A DNA stretch of 6,208 nucleotides, taken from positions 1 to 6,208 of IMG/VR virus record IMGVR_UViG_2695420382_000003; one strand, given 5' to 3'. The translations under genes were made by a program, and so were the position numbers. Shown piece by piece: positions 1 to 6,208 of this stretch (positions are counted from its first letter, which is position 1; every line of letters starts with the position of its first letter). The notes under the pieces are model-generated. The model had not been told where the DNA came from. It saw nothing but the letters and a program-made list of their open reading frames with translations, and searched no databases. This stretch comes from a virus (Duplodnaviria > Heunggongvirae > Uroviricota > Caudoviricetes).

Positions 1-1
1 C

Positions 2-109
2 ATCAGTCCGATTAGCAGGGCTTTTAAGTATGCGATTGATGGACTCACCAATAAAAAACGCCCGGTGTGGCAAACCGAGCGTTCTGAACAAATCCAGATG
101 GAGTTCTGA
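2..109 (+). CDS. cII: cII transcriptional activator, 3' end only (5' end lies outside the window)
   Basis: The frame ending at TGA 107-109 translates to ...ISPISRAFKYAIDGLTNKKRPVWQTERSEQIQMEF. The last ~16 residues match the lambda CII C-terminus as I recall it (...TNKKRP..TERSEQIQMEF). It sits directly upstream of O, as in lambdoid phages. The upstream part differs from lambda, suggesting a mosaic allele. Confidence 0.7.
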   Translation: MSPISRAFKYAIDGLTNKKRPVWQTERSEQIQMEF

Positions 110-131
110 GGTCATTACTGGATCTATCAAC
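53..131 (-). ncRNA. oop: oop antisense RNA (~77 nt), overlapping the cII 3' end and ending in an intrinsic terminator
   Basis: The reverse complement of 53-131 reads GTTGATAGATCCAGTAATGACCTCAGAACTCCATCTGGATTTGTTCAGAACGCTCGGTTTGCCACACCGGGCGTTTTTT, which closely matches lambda oop as I recall it. A terminal hairpin (CGCTCGG / CCGGGCG, with one G-U pair) is followed by a U-run (plus-strand A-run at 53-58). Confidence 0.6.
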
Positions 132-138
132 AGGAGTC

Positions 139-167
139 ATTATGACAAATACAGCAAAAATACTCAA
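139..167 (-). promoter_or_regulatory. pO promoter driving oop (sigma70-like)
   Basis: On the minus strand: -35 TTGAGT (plus 162-167), 17-bp spacer, -10 CATAAT (plus 139-144). The predicted start falls ~7 nt downstream, at the oop 5' end (~131). It lies inside the first codons of O, as in lambda. Confidence 0.5.
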
Positions 168-1080
168 CTTCGGCAGAGGTAACTTTGCCGGACAGGAGCG
201 TAATGTGGCAGATCTCGATGATGGTTACGCCAGATTATCAAATATGCTGCTTGAGGCTTATTCAGGCGCAGATCTGACCAAGCGACAGTTTAAAGTGCTG
301 CTTGCCATTCTGCGTAAAACCTATGGGTGGAATAAACCAATGGACAGAATCACCGATTCTCAACTTAGCGAGATGACAAAGTTACCTGTCAAACGGTGCA
401 ATGAAGCCAAGCTAGAACTCGTCAGAATGAATATTATCAAGCAGCAAGGCGGCATGTTTGGACCAAATAAAAACATCTCAGAATGGTGTATCCCTCAAAA
501 CGAGGGAGGTTCCCCCAAAATGAGGGATATCCCTCAAAACGAGGGAAAATCCCCTAAAACGAGGGATAAAACATCCCTCAAATTGGGGGATTGCTATCCC
601 TCAAAACAGGGGGACACAAAAGACACTATTACAAAAGAAAAAAGAAAAGATTATTCGTCCGAGAATTCTGGCGAATCCTCTGACCAGCCAGAAAACGATC
701 TTTCTGTGGTTAAACCGGATGCTGCAATTCAGAGCGGCAGCAAGTGGGGAACAGCAGAAGACCTGACCGCCGCAGAGTGGATGTTTGACATGGTGAAGAC
801 TATCGCGCCATCAGCCAGAAAACCGAATTTTGCTGGGTGGGCTAACGATATCCGCCTGATGCGTGAACGTGACGGACGTAACCACCGCGATATGTGTGTG
901 CTTTTCCGCTGGGCCTGCCAGGACAACTTCTGGTCCGGTAACGTGCTAAGTCCGGCCAAACTCCGCGACAAGTGGACCCAGCTCGAAATCAACCGTAACA
1001 AGCAACAGGCAGGCGTGACAGCCAGCAAACCAAAACTCGACCTGACAAACACTGACTGGATTTACGGGGTGGATTTATGA
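142..1080 (+). CDS. O: Replication initiator protein O (origin-binding), 312 aa
   Basis: The translation is near-identical to lambda O as I recall it (MTNTAKILNFGRGNFAGQERNVADLDDGYARL... WIYGVDL). An AGGAG Shine-Dalgarno precedes the ATG. The iteron array lies inside the coding sequence. The protein is ~13 aa longer than lambda O because of two extra iterons. The stop overlaps the P start (ATGA). Confidence 0.95.
   Translation: MTNTAKILNFGRGNFAGQERNVADLDDGYARLSNMLLEAYSGADLTKRQFKVLLAILRKTYGWNKPMDRITDSQLSEMTKLPVKRCNEAKLELVRMNIIKQQGGMFGPNKNISEWCIPQNEGGSPKMRDIPQNEGKSPKTRDKTSLKLGDCYPSKQGDTKDTITKEKRKDYSSENSGESSDQPENDLSVVKPDAAIQSGSKWGTAEDLTAAEWMFDMVKTIAPSARKPNFAGWANDIRLMRERDGRNHRDMCVLFRWACQDNFWSGNVLSPAKLRDKWTQLEINRNKQQAGVTASKPKLDLTNTDWIYGVDL
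491..614. repeat. Lambda-type replication origin iteron array: six ~17-18 bp dyad-symmetric iterons (TCCCTCAAAACGAGGGA-like) at ~20 bp spacing
   Basis: Direct repeats at 491-507, 511-527, 530-546, 550-566, 574-590 and 597-614. Each has a TCCC(T/C)C arm, an A-rich centre and a (G)AGGGA arm. The first and third copies are identical. Confidence 0.85.
615..655. promoter_or_regulatory. A/T-rich DNA-unwinding segment flanking the iterons
   Basis: ACACAAAAGACACTATTACAAAAGAAAAAAGAAAAGATTATT lies immediately right of the last iteron. This is the same arrangement as the lambda origin. Confidence 0.6.
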
Positions 1081-1778
1081 AAAACATCGCAGCACAGATG
1101 GTTAACTTTGACCGTGAGCAGATGCGTCGGATCGCCAACAACATGCCGGAACAGTACGACGAAAAGCCGCAGGTACAGCAGGTAGCGCAGATCATCAACG
1201 GTGTGTTCAGCCAGTTACTGGCAACTTTCCCGGCGAGCCTGGCTAACCGTGACCAGAACGAACTGAACGAAATCCGCCGCCAGTGGGTTCTGGCTTTCCG
1301 GGAAAACGGGGTCACCACAATGGAACAGGTTAACGCAGGAATGCGCGTAGCCCGTCGGCAGAATCGACCATTTCTGCCATCACCCGGGCAGTTTGTCGCC
1401 TGGTGCCGGGAAGAAGCATCCGTTATTGCCGGACTGCCAAACGTCAGCGAGCTGGTTGATATGGTTTACGAGTATTGCCGGAAGCGAGGCCTGTATCCGG
1501 ATGCGGAGTCTTATCCGTGGAAATCAAACGCGCACTACTGGCTGGTTACCAACCTGTATCAGAACATGCGGGCCAATGCGCTTACTGATGCGGAATTACG
1601 CCGTAAGGCCGCAGATGAGCTTGTCCATATGACTGCGAGAATTAACCGTGGTGAGGCGATCCCTGAACCAGTAAAACAACTTCCTGTCATGGGCGGCAGA
1701 CCTCTAAATCGTGCACAGGCTCTGGCGAAGATCGCAGAACTCAAAGCTAAGTTCGGACTGAAAGGAGCAAGTCTATGA
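1077..1778 (+). CDS. P: Replication protein P (DnaB helicase loader), 233 aa
   Basis: The translation MKNIAAQMVNFDREQMRRIANNMPEQYDEKPQ...KFGLKGASL matches lambda P as I recall it. Its start overlaps the O stop (ATGA) and its stop overlaps the ren start. Confidence 0.95.
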   Translation: MKNIAAQMVNFDREQMRRIANNMPEQYDEKPQVQQVAQIINGVFSQLLATFPASLANRDQNELNEIRRQWVLAFRENGVTTMEQVNAGMRVARRQNRPFLPSPGQFVAWCREEASVIAGLPNVSELVDMVYEYCRKRGLYPDAESYPWKSNAHYWLVTNLYQNMRANALTDAELRRKAADELVHMTARINRGEAIPEPVKQLPVMGGRPLNRAQALAKIAELKAKFGLKGASL

Positions 1779-2065
1779 CGGGCAAAGAAGCAATTATTCA
1801 TTATCTGGAGACGCACAAGAGCTTCTGTGCGCCGGACGTTGCTGCGGTAACAGGCGCAACAGTAACCAGCATAAATCAGGCCGCGGCTAAAATGGCACGG
1901 GCAGGTCTTCTGGTTATCGAAAGTAAGGTCTGGCGAACGGTGTATTACCGGTTCGCTACCAGAGAAGAACGGGAAGGAAAGGTGAGCACGAACCTGATTT
2001 TTAAGGAGTGTCGCCAGAGTGCCGCGATGAAACGGGTATTGGCGGTATATGGAGTTAAAAGATGA
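1775..2065 (+). CDS. ren: Ren protein (rex exclusion relief), 96 aa
   Basis: The translation MTGKEAIIHYLETHKSFCAPDVAAVTGATVTSINQAAAKMARAGLLVIE... matches lambda Ren as I recall it. It is in the canonical position after P. Confidence 0.9.
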   Translation: MTGKEAIIHYLETHKSFCAPDVAAVTGATVTSINQAAAKMARAGLLVIESKVWRTVYYRFATREEREGKVSTNLIFKECRQSAAMKRVLAVYGVKR

Positions 2066-2090
2066 CCATCTACATCACTGAGCTAATAAC

Positions 2091-2123
2091 AGGCCTGCTG
2101 GTAATCGCAGGCCTTTTTATTTG
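2091..2123 (+). terminator. Intrinsic terminator, tR2-like
   Basis: Perfect 8-bp stem AGGCCTGC (2091-2098) / GCAGGCCT (2107-2114) with an 8-nt loop, followed by TTTTTATTTG. It lies just downstream of ren, where lambda tR2 is located. Confidence 0.65.
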
Positions 2124-2243
2124 TATGTAAGCAAAATCGATTTTAAGCCACATAAATAAGCCTGTGGCGACCTAATCATTGCTCGGGCATGTAATTAGGT
2201 GGCGAGATGCAAAAGTTACGCAGAATGCGATTAAGGAGGTTTA

Positions 2244-2714
2244 ATGGTGAGGCAAATATACATGCTTCGCAACGAAGCAATCAGAAATAACGCCATAGAC
2301 GCAATACTCTCACTTCCGATCGACGACAAGTCACCTCACGAAGTCCACGTTAAAGAACCAAAGCGGAGCAATCCTCAAAACCGCCTTATGTGGGCGTTAT
2401 TGCGGGACGTATCGCGTCAGGTGCTTTGGCATGGAGAGAGACTTGCGCCGGAAGACTGGAAAGACCTGTTCACTGCCCTGTGGCTTAAGACCAAAAAACT
2501 GGAGCAACGAAGTGCGCCTGGTATCGACGGTGGCGTTGTTATGCTTGGCGTGCGTACCAGCAAAATGCGAAAGGCCAACATGACTGAGCTTATCGAAATC
2601 ATGTTCTGGTTCGGCTCAGAGCGCAACGTGCGGTGGAGTGATGACTCCCGGCGAGAGTATGAATGGTCACAACGGAAAGGTAACACGGACAATATGCGAG
2701 GGTTGAATGATTAA
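2244..2714 (+). CDS. ninB: NinB (Orf-family recombination mediator), 156 aa
   Basis: A strong Shine-Dalgarno (AAGGAGGT) sits 4 nt upstream of the ATG. The translation shares conserved blocks with lambda NinB as I recall them (NPQNRLMWALLRDVSRQVLWHGERL..WK..FTA; ..TSKM...E..ELIE....FG.ER.V.WSD). Confidence 0.85.
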   Translation: MVRQIYMLRNEAIRNNAIDAILSLPIDDKSPHEVHVKEPKRSNPQNRLMWALLRDVSRQVLWHGERLAPEDWKDLFTALWLKTKKLEQRSAPGIDGGVVMLGVRTSKMRKANMTELIEIMFWFGSERNVRWSDDSRREYEWSQRKGNTDNMRGLND

Positions 2715-3237
2715 GCATAAATCAGAAACACCAAAAGAAGTTAGAGACTGCTGGAAAACGCCGCTTTGGCTTTTTGATGCACTGGATATTGAGTTTGGAT
2801 TCTGGCTGGATTCGGCAGCGAGCGACAAAAATGCTCTGTGTGCTCACTGGCTAACTGAGGCCGACGACGCGCTCAATTCTGAGTGGGTAAGCCACGGTGC
2901 AATCTGGAATAACCCACCGTACAGCAATATCAGGCCGTGGGTGGAAAAAGCCGCTGAGCAGTGCATACAACAGCGACAGACGGTAGTTATGCTTGTGCCA
3001 GAGGATATGTCAGTCGGATGGTTCAGCAAGGCTCTGGAGAGTGTCGACGAAGTTCGCATTATCACTGATGGACGGATTAATTTTATCGAACCATCGACAG
3101 GGCTGGAGAAGAAGGGAAACAGCAAAGGCTCCATGCTGCTGATTTGGCGACCGTTCATCAGTCCTCGACGGATGTTTACTACCGTATCCAAAGCGGCATT
3201 GATGGCGATCGGGCAGGGCGTCAGGAGGGCAGAATGA
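2707..3237 (+). CDS. Phage orphan DNA N6-adenine methyltransferase (Dam-like), 176 aa
   Basis: The translation contains the catalytic NPPY motif (..[11 protein letters not shown]..) typical of N6-adenine methyltransferases. Its size and layout fit the phage Dam-type family. The start overlaps the ninB stop and the stop overlaps the ninE start. No adjacent restriction endonuclease gene is present. Confidence 0.8.
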
Positions 3238-3410
3238 GACGACAGCGACGAAGCATCACCGACATCATCTGCGAAAACTGCAAATACCTTCCAACGAAGC
3301 GCTCCAGAAATAAACGCAAGCCAATCCCAAAAGAATCTGACGTAAAAACCTTCAACTACACGGCTCACCTGTGGGATATCCGGTGGCTAAGACATCGTGC
3401 GAGGAAATGA
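3234..3410 (+). CDS. ninE: NinE, 58 aa
   Basis: The translation [58 protein letters not shown] matches lambda NinE as I recall it. The start is the ATG at 3234, internal to the longer 88-aa track ORF, and overlaps the methyltransferase stop (ATGA). Confidence 0.85.
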
Positions 3411-3451
3411 CTATTTATCCGGTGCGCCGCCAGAATGACGGCGCGGTGTGG

Positions 3452-3760
3452 TTAAACGAAGCGGATCTGGAGTTTTTTTCCAGTAGCGCGGGCGAATTTT
3501 TTTAGGGTGGCAAATGATGGGCCGCTGATACCTGATGCGAGATTACTTTCCATTCTGGTGATCGCGGTCGCTTTTGTTCCCATTCGCTCGGCAACTTCAG
3601 CCTGAGTTAAGCCAGCTTCTTTGCGTGCTGCCAGCATTTCATCAAGCAGTGCGAATTCGTCAGCGATAGCGTCGTATTCTGCTTTAAAAGCCGGGTCTTC
3701 CATCCATTTGGCTGCCATTTCGTCGTGTGTCATGGTGGGGAGAGTGCGTTTACCAGTCAT
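3452..3760 (-). CDS. XRE-family HTH antitoxin (HigA-like), 102 aa
   Basis: A perfect Shine-Dalgarno AAGGAGGT lies 5 nt upstream of the ATG, inside the toxin 3' end. The translation has a helix-turn-helix signature (GLTQAEVAERMGTKATAITRMESN) and a C-terminal tail (LKKFARATGKKLQIRFV) typical of antitoxins partnered with Gp49/HigB-like toxins. It overlaps the upstream toxin ORF by 11 nt. Confidence 0.8.
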   Translation of the reverse strand: MTGKRTLPTMTHDEMAAKWMEDPAFKAEYDAIADEFALLDEMLAARKEAGLTQAEVAERMGTKATAITRMESNLASGISGPSFATLKKFARATGKKLQIRFV

Positions 3761-4079
3761 GCTTAACCTCCTTCATTCTGGTTTCAGCTTTCTTGCGTTC
3801 GGCTGGCGGTGTTTTCTGCGTTTTCTTTACAAAACTATGCAGCATGATGATGCGTTTCCCTGTCAGAGTGCAGTAAAAAACACGCGCGATCCCATCGTTG
3901 CCTTTAATTCTGAGTTCGAAAAGCCCGTCACCAAAGGCGCTGGTGTGAGGTTCTCCGAGATTGCTGCCATATATCTTCATACGTTCAACGAGATGTTGGT
4001 ATCGGGCACGCATACTCAATGGAAGCCGATCGACTTCCAGCCTTACATCTTCACTGTAGTATTCGATAGTGTAGTTCAT
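3750..4079 (-). CDS. RelE/ParE-superfamily toxin (HigB / Gp49-like), ~109 aa
   Basis: The translation from the ATG at 4079 is MNYTIEYYSEDVRLEVDRLP...GDGLFELRIKGNDGIARVFYCTLTGKRIIMLHSFVKKTQKTPPAERKKAETRMKEVKHDW. The C-terminal H.F.KKTQKTP..E...A motif is characteristic of Gp49-like RelE-family toxins. The gene order is toxin first, antitoxin second, as in higBA. The start is uncertain: ATG at 4091 is an alternative, the 154-aa track ORF start at 4214 is unlikely, and there is no obvious Shine-Dalgarno. Confidence 0.75.
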   Translation of the reverse strand: MNYTIEYYSEDVRLEVDRLPLSMRARYQHLVERMKIYGSNLGEPHTSAFGDGLFELRIKGNDGIARVFYCTLTGKRIIMLHSFVKKTQKTPPAERKKAETRMKEVKHDW

Positions 4080-4124
4080 AGGTATCAACATAACAAAATC
4101 GTTATATGCATTCAAGGCCTGTAG

Positions 4125-4154
4125 TTGACGACAACACATATCCGGGGCTATATT
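4125..4154 (+). promoter_or_regulatory. Candidate sigma70 promoter reading rightward
   Basis: -35 TTGACG (4125-4130), 18-bp spacer, -10 TATATT (4149-4154). The predicted start is near 4161. It overlaps the left arm of the 10-bp inverted repeat. Confidence 0.35.
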
Positions 4155-4201
4155 CCTCACGCGCCAGCAAAATCTGGCGTCGGGATTGGAACCCCGGATA
4201 T
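4138..4201. repeat. Nested palindrome: perfect 10-bp inverted repeat ATATCCGGGG / CCCCGGATAT enclosing an inner 6-bp inverted repeat CGCCAG / CTGGCG
   Basis: Outer arms are at 4138-4147 and 4192-4201. Inner arms are at 4162-4167 and 4174-4179, and TTCC (4153-4156) pairs with GGAA (4188-4191). The two centres are within 1 bp of each other. This is a candidate operator, or an RNA hairpin if transcribed. Confidence 0.6.
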
Positions 4202-4214
4202 CGAAACGGTGCAT

Positions 4215-4234
4215 ACCGCGCTGGCGGTTTTTTT
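4215..4234 (+). terminator. Candidate short intrinsic terminator or attenuator (+ strand only)
   Basis: 5-bp GC-rich stem ACCGC / GCGGT with a GCTG tetraloop, followed by a 7-T run (4228-4234). The stem is short, so this call is tentative. Confidence 0.35.
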
Positions 4235-4397
4235 ATGCGCTAAGCACAGTCACATTCGCGATTTATGGCGGGCTGTGTGGGGGCACCGAAAGGTGCGCCG
4301 GATGTTTCGACCGGTAGTTCCAACCCTGCACAGTTCGCCACCCGATGATTGGAACCTGAAGGTGGTGAGGTAAAAATTATCGAAACGCGAGGTCGTT

Positions 4398-5084
4398 ATG
4401 ACTGTTCAAGTTGCTGTCAAAAACCTTTCCCCTGTCACTTATAACCAGATTCCTGTAATCACAACTGAGTTACTCGCCCGCCTTTACGGAACAGAAGCAA
4501 TCCGTATACAGCAGAATCACCATGAAAATAAATCTCGATTTATTGAGGGAAAACACTTCTTTAAAGCTGTTGGTGATGAGCTCAAAAATTTGCGACTAGT
4601 TTTAAACGAGTCGCAAAATGAGGTGAAAATTTCTCCAAAAACCCGCTCCCTCATCCTCTGGACAGAACGCGGCGCAGCTCGTCACGCGAAGATGCTCGAA
4701 ACCGATCAGGCATGGGACGTGTTCGAAAAACTGGAAGACTGCTATTTCAGCCAGACTTCGAAAAGCGCAGGTCATCACGAGAAGAAAACCAGCGAGCTTT
4801 CTGCAAAAGATGCAAACAGTCTGGTATGGTTGTGGGATTATGCCAACCGCTCACAGGCATTATTCCGCGAACTGTATCCGGCGCTAAGACAAATTCAGTC
4901 TAACTATTCCGGCAGATGCCACGACTACGGTCATGAGTTCTCGTATGTTATCGGAATGGCGAGAGACGTTTTAATCAATCACACACGAGATGTTGATATT
5001 AATGAGCCAGACGGACCAACGAATCTTTCTGCATGGGTAAGACTTAAGAACAAAGAATTACCTCCTTCACTACATCACTACTGA
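4398..5084 (+). CDS. ORF6N (KilA-N-like) domain protein with an uncharacterised C-terminal half, 228 aa
   Basis: GAGG lies 5 nt upstream of the ATG. The N-terminal ~115 aa carry an ORF6N-like signature ([36 protein letters not shown] ... [34 protein letters not shown]). The C-terminal ~110 aa match no family I recognise. Confidence 0.8.
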
Positions 5085-5102
5085 CAGATTGCCAACGCAA
5101 CG

Positions 5103-5126
5103 ACCCAGCTTCGGCTGGGTTTTTTA
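5103..5126 (+). terminator. Intrinsic terminator
   Basis: 7-bp stem ACCCAGC / GCTGGGT with a TTCG tetraloop, followed by TTTTTTAT. It lies 19 nt after the stop of the ORF6N gene. Confidence 0.75.
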
Positions 5127-5158
5127 TTGCTGAATTTTCAATATGAGAGGACATGACA

Positions 5159-5413
5159 ATGAACGAGCTGATAAATAGCAACGCCATTAAAATGACCAGC
5201 ATTGAAATCGCTGAGTTGGTGGGTAAGCGTCATGACAATGTGAAACGTACCATCGAAACGCTGGTTAAAAGTGGAGTTATCCGGCTTCCTCAAATTGAGG
5301 TTTCCGAAAGAATCAATAAATTAGGGTTCAATGTTCAGTACGAGCATTACGTCTTCGAAGGCGAACAAGGTAAGCGCGACAGCATTATTGTCGTTGAAGG
5401 AGGTGTTGCATGA
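5159..5413 (+). CDS. Stand-alone Rha-domain (Phage_pRha-like) small DNA-binding protein, ~84 aa
   Basis: The translation has the Rha-family N-terminal signature (MTSIEIAELVGKRHDNVKRTIETL). GAGAGG lies 8 nt upstream of the ATG at 5159; the track start at 5153 is too close to that Shine-Dalgarno. The stop overlaps the start of the next gene (ATGA). Confidence 0.7.
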   Translation: MNELINSNAIKMTSIEIAELVGKRHDNVKRTIETLVKSGVIRLPQIEVSERINKLGFNVQYEHYVFEGEQGKRDSIIVVEGGVA

Positions 5414-6180
5414 ATGCCGTAATTATTGCCAACGCAGAAATCGTGCCGATTGAGTTTAATGGCGAGCGTGTTGTTACGTATCAAATGATTGCTGATATTC
5501 ACGGGGTTCCAGTAGCCACTATTCAAAATGGCTATGCGCGAAACTCTGAGTATTTCATAGACAGGGAAGATACATATTTTATTGATTTTCATGAAAATAC
5601 CTTTAGAAGGGGTTTTGAAATTCCTCCTCGTGGCATGCGAGTTTTCACTGAATCAGGCTATTTGATGCTGGTTAAAACCCTGCGCGACGAGACGGCGTGG
5701 AGAGTGCAACGTGAGCTTGTTCGCAATTATTTTCGTGGCCAAAAAGAAGATAAGTCAGCCTTGCCCGACTTCACAAACCCTGCTGAAGCCGCCAGAGCGT
5801 GGGCAAACGAATATGAGCAGAAAGTGAAGCTGGAGCAACAACTCGCGATTGCCGCACCTAAAGTTGAGTTTGCCGATCGCGTTGGCGAGGCCAGCGGAAT
5901 TTTGATTGGAAACTTTGCAAAGGTTGTTGGTATTGGCCCAAACAAACTGTTTGCGTGGATGCGTGATCACAAAATCCTTATTGCTTCAGGTTCCCGGCGC
6001 AATGTGCCAATGCAGGAATATATGGATCGCGGCTATTTCACAGTGAAAGAAACAGCGGTCAACACAAATCACGGAATACAGATATCGTTCACCACAAAAA
6101 TCACCGGGCGTGGTCAACAGTGGCTGACCAGAAAGCTGCTCGATAACGGAATGCTGAAAGTAACAGGGGAGGCTGCATGA
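5410..6180 (+). CDS. Phage antirepressor-like protein, ORF6N-like N-terminal domain plus KilA-C C-terminal domain (Roi-like), 256 aa
   Basis: The N-terminal domain parallels the 4398 gene (..VVTYQMIADIHGVPVATIQNGYARNSEYFIDREDTYF...RVFTESGYLMLVKTLRDETAWRVQRELVRNYF). The C-terminal half (PDFTNPAEAARAWANEYEQKVKLEQQLAIAAPKVEFADRV...GYFTVKETAVNTNHGIQISFTTKITGRGQQWL) has the KilA-C / Ant C-terminal signature. Its nin-region position is consistent with HK022-type Roi, but I cannot confirm that identity from memory. Confidence 0.85.
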   Translation: MNAVIIANAEIVPIEFNGERVVTYQMIADIHGVPVATIQNGYARNSEYFIDREDTYFIDFHENTFRRGFEIPPRGMRVFTESGYLMLVKTLRDETAWRVQRELVRNYFRGQKEDKSALPDFTNPAEAARAWANEYEQKVKLEQQLAIAAPKVEFADRVGEASGILIGNFAKVVGIGPNKLFAWMRDHKILIASGSRRNVPMQEYMDRGYFTVKETAVNTNHGIQISFTTKITGRGQQWLTRKLLDNGMLKVTGEAA

Positions 6181-6208
6181 ATGAGTACAGATTCACGCTT
6201 CCATACCC
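6177..6208 (+). CDS. 5' end of the next nin-region gene (partial, product unknown)
   Basis: The ATG at 6177 overlaps the preceding stop in the same ATGA arrangement seen at four other gene junctions in this window. GGGGAGG lies 4 nt upstream. Only ~10 codons are visible (MNEYRFTLPY...). The ATG at 6181 is an alternative start. Confidence 0.3.
   Translation, partial: MNEYRFTLPY

Follow-up and report, generated by a model that had tools for sequence, protein, structure and literature searches.

A long intergenic gap of a lambdoid prophage probably holds an unannotated copy of the P1 c4/Gifsy-1 IsrK RNA switch upstream of an antirepressor gene

What is encoded in a repeat-rich stretch of 318 bp that separates two divergent genes of a lambdoid prophage? 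The question is raised by positions 4080-4397 of a 6,208-nucleotide DNA (the window, i.e. the whole stretch analysed), corresponding to positions 1 to 6,208 of the IMG/VR virus record IMGVR_UViG_2695420382_000003. A preliminary description of the bare sequence had drawn attention to this long non-coding gap, which indeed extends between the start of a minus-strand Gp49/HigB-like gene (4079) and that of a plus-strand gene (4398), and to the palindromes, direct repeats, promoter and terminator-like hairpin that it contains. Two readings had been offered, a short RNA of about 70 nt with a possible attenuator role over the gene at 4398, or an operator for the neighbouring helix-turn-helix (HTH) antitoxin or another regulator. 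The analyses reported here make it quite probable that the gap contains a known RNA switch of phages, described as c4 in phage P1 and as IsrK in Salmonella Gifsy-1, in a copy that carries no annotation.

The whole window was scanned against Rfam using the curated gathering scores as cut-off. The scan returned three families above their gathering scores, isrK, c4-a1b1 and C4 antisense RNA, all on the plus strand, in the expected order and inside the gap (Table 1). The isrK match coincides with the RNA of about 70 nt that had been postulated to start near 4161 and to end at the T-run, while the C4 antisense RNA and the role of the direct repeats as its paired target sites had been missed. The resulting order of elements, namely promoter, hairpin 1, hairpin 2 (a1), b1, terminator, C4, a2 and b2, the last adjoining the Shine-Dalgarno (SD) sequence of an antirepressor gene, is collinear with that of two experimentally studied loci, the immI leader of phage P1 and isrK of Gifsy-1. 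ARAGORN found no tRNA or tmRNA gene in the window, and neither an RNA family (Rfam) nor a promoter (scan) was detected on the minus strand.

On the basis of complementarity, the direct repeats are the predicted target sites of the C4 RNA. Both 10-mers of the preliminary description were recovered, GATTGGAACC at 4184-4193 and 4347-4356 and TATCGAAACG at 4199-4208 and 4378-4387, the last copy having been placed one position too far downstream (4379-4388). C4 carries GUUCCAA(CC) in its single-stranded part, complementary to the motif GAUUGGAAC at a1 (4184) and a2 (4347), and GUUUCGA in its second hairpin loop, complementary to UCGAAAC at b1 (4199) and b2 (4378). The position of b2 matches that of P1 b2 in front of icd; it is adjacent to the SD sequence and within the ribosome footprint, without overlap (b2 ends at 4387, the SD sequence spans 4389-4392). 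Of 2000 dinucleotide-preserving shuffles of the 318 bp, 2.5% contained a perfect inverted repeat of 10 bp or more, 3.75% a direct repeat of 10 nt or more and 1% two repeated 10-mers. The repeats are thus unlikely to have arisen by chance, yet they are not overwhelming when taken alone.

The pairing was then followed among relatives of the module. A first sample consisted of 80 viral-contig loci encoding antirepressor relatives, 79 of which carried the module, in 40 distinct versions. These comprise six a-types and seven b-types in mosaic combinations, with the three members of a set, a1/a'/a2 or b1/b'/b2, switching jointly. Cognate duplexes were more stable than non-cognate ones in all four pairings, with mean values of -9.5 versus -3.5 kcal/mol for a'/a2, -11.8 versus -5.8 kcal/mol for a'/a1, -9.3 versus -5.7 kcal/mol for b'/b2 and -9.5 versus -4.6 kcal/mol for b'/b1. 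A second, independent sample, collected by a degenerate C4 pattern search, provided 82 usable modules, in which 23 different a' and 48 different b' elements were distinguished; for each of the four pairings, the cognate mean was reached in 0 of 5000 permutations. This three-way co-variation is the signature that would be expected if the C4 RNA pairs with both pairs of sites, and it extends the logic of P1/P7 heteroimmunity.

The structure of the C4 segment was evaluated both individually and in comparison with its homologues. Its minimum-energy fold is the structure of the family model (-46 kcal/mol, z = -4.9), and the RNAalifold consensus of 34 diverse homologues contains 26 pairs, 16 of which show compensatory changes. 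The ends share their sequence context with P1, AU/GG at the 5' side (the slash marking the cleavage point) and GCCACC at the 3' side, processing at these ends being known from P1 only; the mature C4 RNA is accordingly predicted, from the P1 annotation and the alignment to the model, at about 4267-4345. The full leader gave two near-isoenergetic folds, a minimum-energy structure in which a1-b1 pairs with b'-a' (-106 kcal/mol) and a centroid with separate IsrK and C4 hairpins (-104 kcal/mol). In the model, these two folds match the inactive structure A and the active structure B shown for Gifsy-1.

As for the upstream half of the gap, neither the promoter scan nor the terminator scan taken alone exceeded chance (one site versus 1.5 expected and two sites versus 1.1 expected, respectively), and the two elements were taken as real because they are conserved and not because of their scan scores. 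Positions A2 and T6 of the -10 hexamer are invariant in 50 out of 50 diverse homologous modules (alignment A1), and the hexamer shares its alignment columns with the annotated -10 of the P1 promoter P1c4 (formerly P51b). Terminator stems differ among variants, and each retains both the pairing and the T-run, so that the sigma70-like promoter and the GC stem followed by T7 of the preliminary description were both recovered in conserved form. The transcription start predicted from the base at which the Rfam isrK model begins is about 4161. When 50 diverse leaders were aligned without gaps, all seven pairs of hairpin 1 showed changes on both sides, with 96% of cells paired, and hairpin 2 was 100% paired, a value falling to 28-49% when the partners were slid by 1-3 columns. 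The single-sequence fold of the short RNA reproduced the same three hairpins; taken by itself, this RNA shows no unusual stability (z = -1.4). Partial read-through of the terminator has been demonstrated for the Gifsy-1 homologue (PMC4825925). The suggestion of an attenuator-like role over the gene at 4398 appears broadly right, since the terminator lies in the leader of this gene and the direct repeats would tie the leader to its ribosome-binding site (RBS).

Both nested inverted repeats, the perfect 10-bp outer one and the inner CGCCAG/CTGGCG one, were read from the sequence as previously claimed, and their expected covariation among relatives was found for the inner arms throughout and for the outer arms in part. 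Judging from its variation, the inner palindrome is a genuine covarying RNA stem (hairpin 1), as its arms differ among relatives through compensatory changes and G.U pairs, in the manner of RNA stems. Of the outer palindrome, the left arm is situated within the promoter spacer, ahead of the predicted transcription start, and should therefore be absent from the module's own transcripts, and the right arm spans the 3' half of hairpin 2 and runs into the first bases of b1. When the outer helix was counted in a single fixed register on alignment A1, only 60% of its cells were paired, one large family having its register shifted by 2 nt; therefore, an alignment-free comparison was used, in which cognate and non-cognate duplexes were calculated for the 15 nt upstream of the -10 hexamer in 77 distinct modules. 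Cognate pairing averaged -13.0 kcal/mol versus -9.7 kcal/mol for non-cognate pairing, a difference reached in 0 of 10000 permutations, and the control segments (-35 region, -10 region and a downstream stretch) showed no cognate excess; a further segment, the 15 nt upstream of the -35, was excluded, as truncated sequences gave meaningless energies there. Compensatory cases include the P1 type TTCAGGC/GCCUGAA (in P1, locus L083, 48208-48215 with 48262-48269), ATCCGGGA/UCCCGGAU and UGAUGUUCGGG/CCUGGGCAUCA with G.U pairs. The pairing contains many G.U-type pairs, is somewhat more stable as plus-strand than as minus-strand RNA (-13.0 versus -11.6 kcal/mol), and is kept by compensatory changes in about two thirds of 31 spacer families and missing in about 10 of them.

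A tentative explanation, which we consider somewhat unlikely, is that the outer palindrome is a conserved long-range RNA helix formed only in transcripts that enter from upstream, by read-through from the early-right operon here and from P51a in P1. If this were the case, 4138-4147 would pair with 4192-4201, the hairpin presenting a1 would dissolve and a1/b1 would be masked, and transcripts from the module's own promoter, with a1/b1 exposed, would be treated unlike lytic read-through transcripts, with a1/b1 masked.

Table 1. Coordinates of the RNA module and of the adjoining genes in the window
Feature	Position	Strand	Details
Sigma-70-type promoter	4125-4154	+	-35 TTGACG 4125-4130, 18-bp spacer, -10 TATATT 4149-4154; 10/12 positions match
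Outer inverted repeat	left arm 4138-4147, right arm 4192-4201		ATATCCGGGG and CCCCGGATAT; perfect 10 bp
Match to c4-a1b1 (RF03163)	4148-4200	+	50.1 bits, gathering score 46.7
Match to isrK (RF01394)	4161-4234	+	72.1 bits, gathering score 50
Putative IsrK-like short RNA (a1/b1 leader)	4161-4234	+	hairpin 1 4161-4180, hairpin 2 4181-4196, linker, intrinsic terminator
Inner inverted repeat	4162-4167, 4174-4179		CGCCAG and CTGGCG; stem of hairpin 1
Site a1	4184-4193	+	GAUUGGAACC; in loop of hairpin 2; complementary to a'; named after P1 annotation
Site b1	4199-4208	+	UAUCGAAACG; single-stranded linker; complementary to b'
Intrinsic terminator	4215-4234	+	stem 4215-4228, seven T 4228-4234
Match to C4 antisense RNA (RF01695)	4261-4345	+	75.2 bits, gathering score 45; full-length match, E = 7e-14
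C4-type antisense RNA	4261-4345	+	long closing stem, hairpin 4283-4295, hairpin 4297-4315
Element b'	4304-4310	+	GUUUCGA; in loop of hairpin 4297-4315
Element a'	4317-4325	+	GUUCCAACC; single-stranded stretch of C4
Site a2	4347-4356	+	GAUUGGAACC; 2 nt past C4 3' end; predicted a' target; position as P1 a2
Site b2	4378-4387	+	UAUCGAAACG; adjoins SD GAGG 4389-4392 of antirepressor gene; predicted b' target
HTH_3 antitoxin-like gene	3452-3760	-	Pfam; outside RNA module
Gp49/HigB-like toxin gene	3750-4079	-	Pfam; outside RNA module
Antirepressor gene (ORF6N + P22_AR_C domains)	4398-5084	+	Pfam, PHROG, AnrP homology; putatively controlled by the module

The immI system of P1/P7 comprises c4 antisense RNA together with the sites a1/b1 and a2/b2 and the icd-ant operon (Citron and Schuster 1990, cited in PMC8198154). 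In the P1 record, two promoters, a1, b1, c4, a2, b2 and icd-ant are annotated from experiments. Both immI and the window contain a promoter (P51b-equivalent), hairpin 1, hairpin 2/a1, b1, a terminator-like hairpin, C4, a2 and b2 at the next RBS, and the same three families occur in the same order; the C4 and c4-a1b1 families match both loci, whereas isrK reaches only 35.1 bits in P1, below its gathering score of 50. The regulated product is an antirepressor in both cases, with specificity residing in a'/b' as in P1/P7 heteroimmunity. However, P1 has icd between b2 and ant, whereas in the window b2 directly precedes the antirepressor gene, whose product is unrelated to P1 Ant1 by sequence comparison. 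Moreover, P1 possesses a C1 operator and the second upstream promoter P51a, both absent from the window, and is a plasmid prophage, while the window belongs to a lambdoid prophage and the module lies next to a HigBA-like pair.

The isrK-orf45-anrP locus of Gifsy-1 carries the same RNAs (isrK 79 bits, C4 69 bits, c4-a1b1 48 bits), the C4 match falling in the orf45/STnc1160 region (34131-34214, minus strand, of the Gifsy-1 record), together with a homologous antirepressor and the same promoter sequence context. Its a/b specificities are GGCGU and UCACCG, in contrast to GGAAC and UCGAAAC in the window, and its upstream neighbour is the Q-like antiterminator gene antQ instead of a divergent Gp49/HigB-like toxin gene. 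Gifsy-1 orf45, of 45 amino acids, begins at the conserved AUG of the C4 5' end, extends across C4, a2 and b2 and overlaps the start of anrP in an AUGA, whereas in the window it is replaced by an unconserved frame of 27 amino acids. This conserved AUG, the orf45 start in Gifsy-1, coincides in P1 with the site of RNase P cleavage. The helix b-I demonstrated in Gifsy-1 corresponds to the a1.a' pairing. Each of the Gifsy-1 mutations G28A, G31A, C162U and C159U singly derepresses AnrP translation, and compensating pairs restore repression (PMC4825925); we identify G28A/G31A as falling in a1 and C162U/C159U in a'. These comparisons show, at the level of sequence and predicted structure, that one and the same widespread immunity module, of which dozens of specificities exist, has IsrK as its a1/b1 leader and orf45/STnc1160 as its C4 RNA. 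The paper on Gifsy-1 IsrK (Hershko-Shalev et al. 2016, PMC4825925) does not cite P1/P7 c4, and a 2025 review lists IsrK and c4 separately.

Two further phage systems can be likened to the module. The P4 CI RNA with seqA/seqC, which confers immunity by premature termination, has been named as an analogue of IsrK (PMC4825925); it is likewise a small RNA derived from an untranslated leader that pairs with one upstream and one downstream site of the same transcript, but it controls replication genes and not an antirepressor, and the likeness drawn here is one of description. The sar RNA of P22 (PMC12197685) likewise blocks translation initiation of an antirepressor, and the protein encoded in the window bears the P22 antirepressor C-terminal domain; however, transcription of sar uses the strand opposite to ant, which in the window is the strand devoid of detectable RNA families and promoters.

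Taken together, the two small RNAs from the antirepressor leader most likely silence the antirepressor in the prophage. For the transcription start, the processing, the direction of regulation and the biological outcome, i.e. control of prophage induction, we infer the following course. A constitutive sigma-70 promoter would direct transcription from about 4161, and most transcripts would end at the terminator, yielding an IsrK-like RNA of about 74 nt with a1 in a hairpin loop and b1 in the linker, as in Gifsy-1. Read-through of the terminator would be required for both C4 and the ant mRNA. Read-through transcripts would carry C4, which, by analogy with P1, RNase P would release at AU/GG, here before G4267, and the exposed a' and b' elements would pair with a2 and b2. 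Because b2 adjoins the SD sequence, pairing of C4 with b2 would block ribosome entry on the antirepressor gene and thereby, if P1 is a guide, also transcription of that gene. The default state of the lysogen would thus be antirepressor off, with a sequence-specific 'immunity' set by a'/b'. The sites a1 and b1 would pair with the same C4 elements, in cis giving an inactive fold, whereas in trans the short RNA may compete for C4, relieve repression as shown for IsrK and switch the read-through mRNA on, leading to prophage induction as suggested by Gifsy-1. In the P1 work of Citron and Schuster of 1990, Biere et al. of 1992 and Hartmann et al. of 1995, the c4 RNA was reportedly released from read-through transcripts by RNase P, and its pairing is said to cause premature, Rho-dependent termination as well.

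Some observations weigh against silencing by C4 as the core of the mechanism. The calculated C4:b2 duplex comprises 7-8 bp with about -9 kcal/mol and stops 1-2 nt before the SD sequence, without covering it, and one of the relatives (L019) has a b2 that mismatches its own b'. The AUG at 4265 opens 27 codons and its stop (4346-4348) lies 49 nt before ant; the corresponding frame ranges in relatives from 8 to more than 55 codons in shifting frames. As this frame is short and unconserved, the coupling step of P1 icd or Gifsy-1 orf45 is not transferable, and direct occlusion of the ant RBS is a simpler reading than translational coupling. Furthermore, the effect demonstrated for the short RNA in Gifsy-1 is that of an activator, whereas no repression was shown there for the C4-like RNA (STnc1160) (PMC4825925); the balance between short-RNA and C4 activities in the window is one that we infer.

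These points lead to an alternative that we judge unlikely, namely that positive control of the Gifsy-1 type prevails, with an intrinsically silent read-through mRNA that the short IsrK-like RNA activates in trans by opening the RBS of a small upstream open reading frame (ORF) coupled to the antirepressor, the C4-like segment being just a part of this ORF and of the mRNA structure and no repressor RNA. Gifsy-1 is the closest experimentally studied homologue, with the same RNAs and a homologous Ant, its orf45 AUG is the conserved one found here at 4265, and the two leader folds of similar energy would suit such a switch. However, the distance between the stop of the 27-codon ORF and ant, and the lack of conservation of this ORF, make stop-start coupling through an overlapping AUGA impossible here; conservation tracks RNA pairing and not codons, and a2/b2 co-vary with a'/b', for which a model based on orf45 alone has no need. 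An operator for the neighbouring HTH antitoxin or another repressor of the divergent units, the second reading of the preliminary description, proved very improbable. A perfect 10-bp inverted repeat does overlap the promoter spacer and an HTH protein is encoded next door, but P1, Gifsy-1 and many other (IMG/VR) loci carry the module with its palindromes and lack the toxin-antitoxin pair, and for most relatives homology sets in only at about 4139, downstream of the DNA next to the toxin. The outer arms are 44 bp apart and centred on an RNA hairpin, the G.U intermediates of the inner arms and the G.U-type pairs and plus-strand preference of the outer arms are those of RNA, and the short palindrome ATAAC-N6-GTTAT at 4090-4105 is a more ordinary candidate for a toxin-antitoxin operator.

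It is extremely improbable, finally, that the region encodes a small protein (an 82-amino-acid ORF at 4125-4373 or a 45-amino-acid ORF at 4106-4243) or a degenerate tRNA. ORFs are present, one phage record annotates a hypothetical protein in the region, weak PHROG matches occur (best E = 3.5e-5), and the outer and inner stems are vaguely cloverleaf-like; on the other side, ARAGORN recognised no tRNA, homologues contain indels of 1-4 nt that disrupt the frames, the variation is compensatory for RNA stems, and the PHROG matches concern N-terminal portions of 'regulator' families, for which ORFs called wrongly across the RNA are the best explanation. The coding reading of the spacer ORFs (82, 45, 43 and 27 amino acids) was thus ruled out by frame-breaking indels and RNA-type covariation. 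The PHROG families concerned, matched weakly by the spurious plus-strand ORFs 4125-4373 and 4265-4348, are the 'transcriptional regulator' families phrog_995, 821, 6928 and 3960, and in some of their members the gene has probably been called with a wrong N-terminal extension that crosses C4/a1b1 RNAs.

The gene that, on the reading we prefer, would be silenced by the C4 RNA was identified by several searches. The 4398-5084 product matched Pfam ORF6N (2.6e-20) and P22_AR_C (2.2e-28) and the PHROG 'anti-repressor Ant' (4e-79), and it shares 62% identity with Gifsy-1 STM2616/AnrP over residues 1-123 (E = 4e-52). Downstream of it lie an 86-amino-acid Rha N-terminal fragment (5153-5413) and a second antirepressor-type gene with ORF6N and KilAC/ANT domains (5410-6180); given these genes, the RNA module may control more than one anti-repressor-like product.

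Judged by its ORFs and Pfam matches, the window stems from the nin region of a lambdoid prophage and encodes, in this order, replication O, replication P, NinB and a Dam-type methylase, the divergent Gp49/HigB-like toxin and HTH antitoxin, and the two antirepressor-type genes. Its closest matches are Stx1a-converting phages (79% coverage, 91% identity). The palindrome at 4090-4105 lies directly upstream of the minus-strand toxin start (4079) and is a candidate promoter or operator element of the toxin-antitoxin pair. A GGGA/TCCC-rich repeat array at 490-621, inside the replication O gene, presumably represents ori iterons and draws chance matches to snoRNA families in a permissive Rfam scan.

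The distribution of the module was surveyed by megablast, which matched the 318 bp in 254 phage records and in 945 out of 5426 complete Escherichia coli genomes, at up to four places in a genome. The inspected RefSeq and phage records bear no annotation of the module, apart from a spurious hypothetical protein over the RNA in phage PhiR5_2, and a literature search of incomplete coverage found no paper describing it in Shiga toxin (Stx) or lambdoid E. coli phages. The mechanism is nothing new in principle, as the three families are curated in Rfam, P1 is textbook knowledge and Gifsy-1 is published; the copy itself is unannotated. Antirepressors trigger prophage induction, which in Shiga-toxin and other lambdoid E. 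coli prophages leads to phage spread and toxin release. Recognition of the module names the regulated gene, the antirepressor at 4398-5084, and makes a predicted 'immunity specificity' readable from the a'/b' sequences, which could predict which co-resident prophages silence or cross-activate one another's antirepressors.

Further copies were noticed during the survey. A second, divergent copy of the module (about 72% identical) occurs in Stx2 phages, such as phage VT2phi_272 (L086, 2191-3450), flanked by a divergent 'addiction module antidote' gene on one side and an Ant-like gene on the other, and many Stx2a phage records hold two places matching the query. In the locus L123 (9712-11104, minus strand), and also in L108, L204 and L155, whole C4 modules, comprising promoter, a1/b1 leader, terminator and C4 and each followed by a gene of about 120 amino acids, form tandem arrays of 2-3 copies spaced 656 nt apart, with differing a/b specificities within one array.

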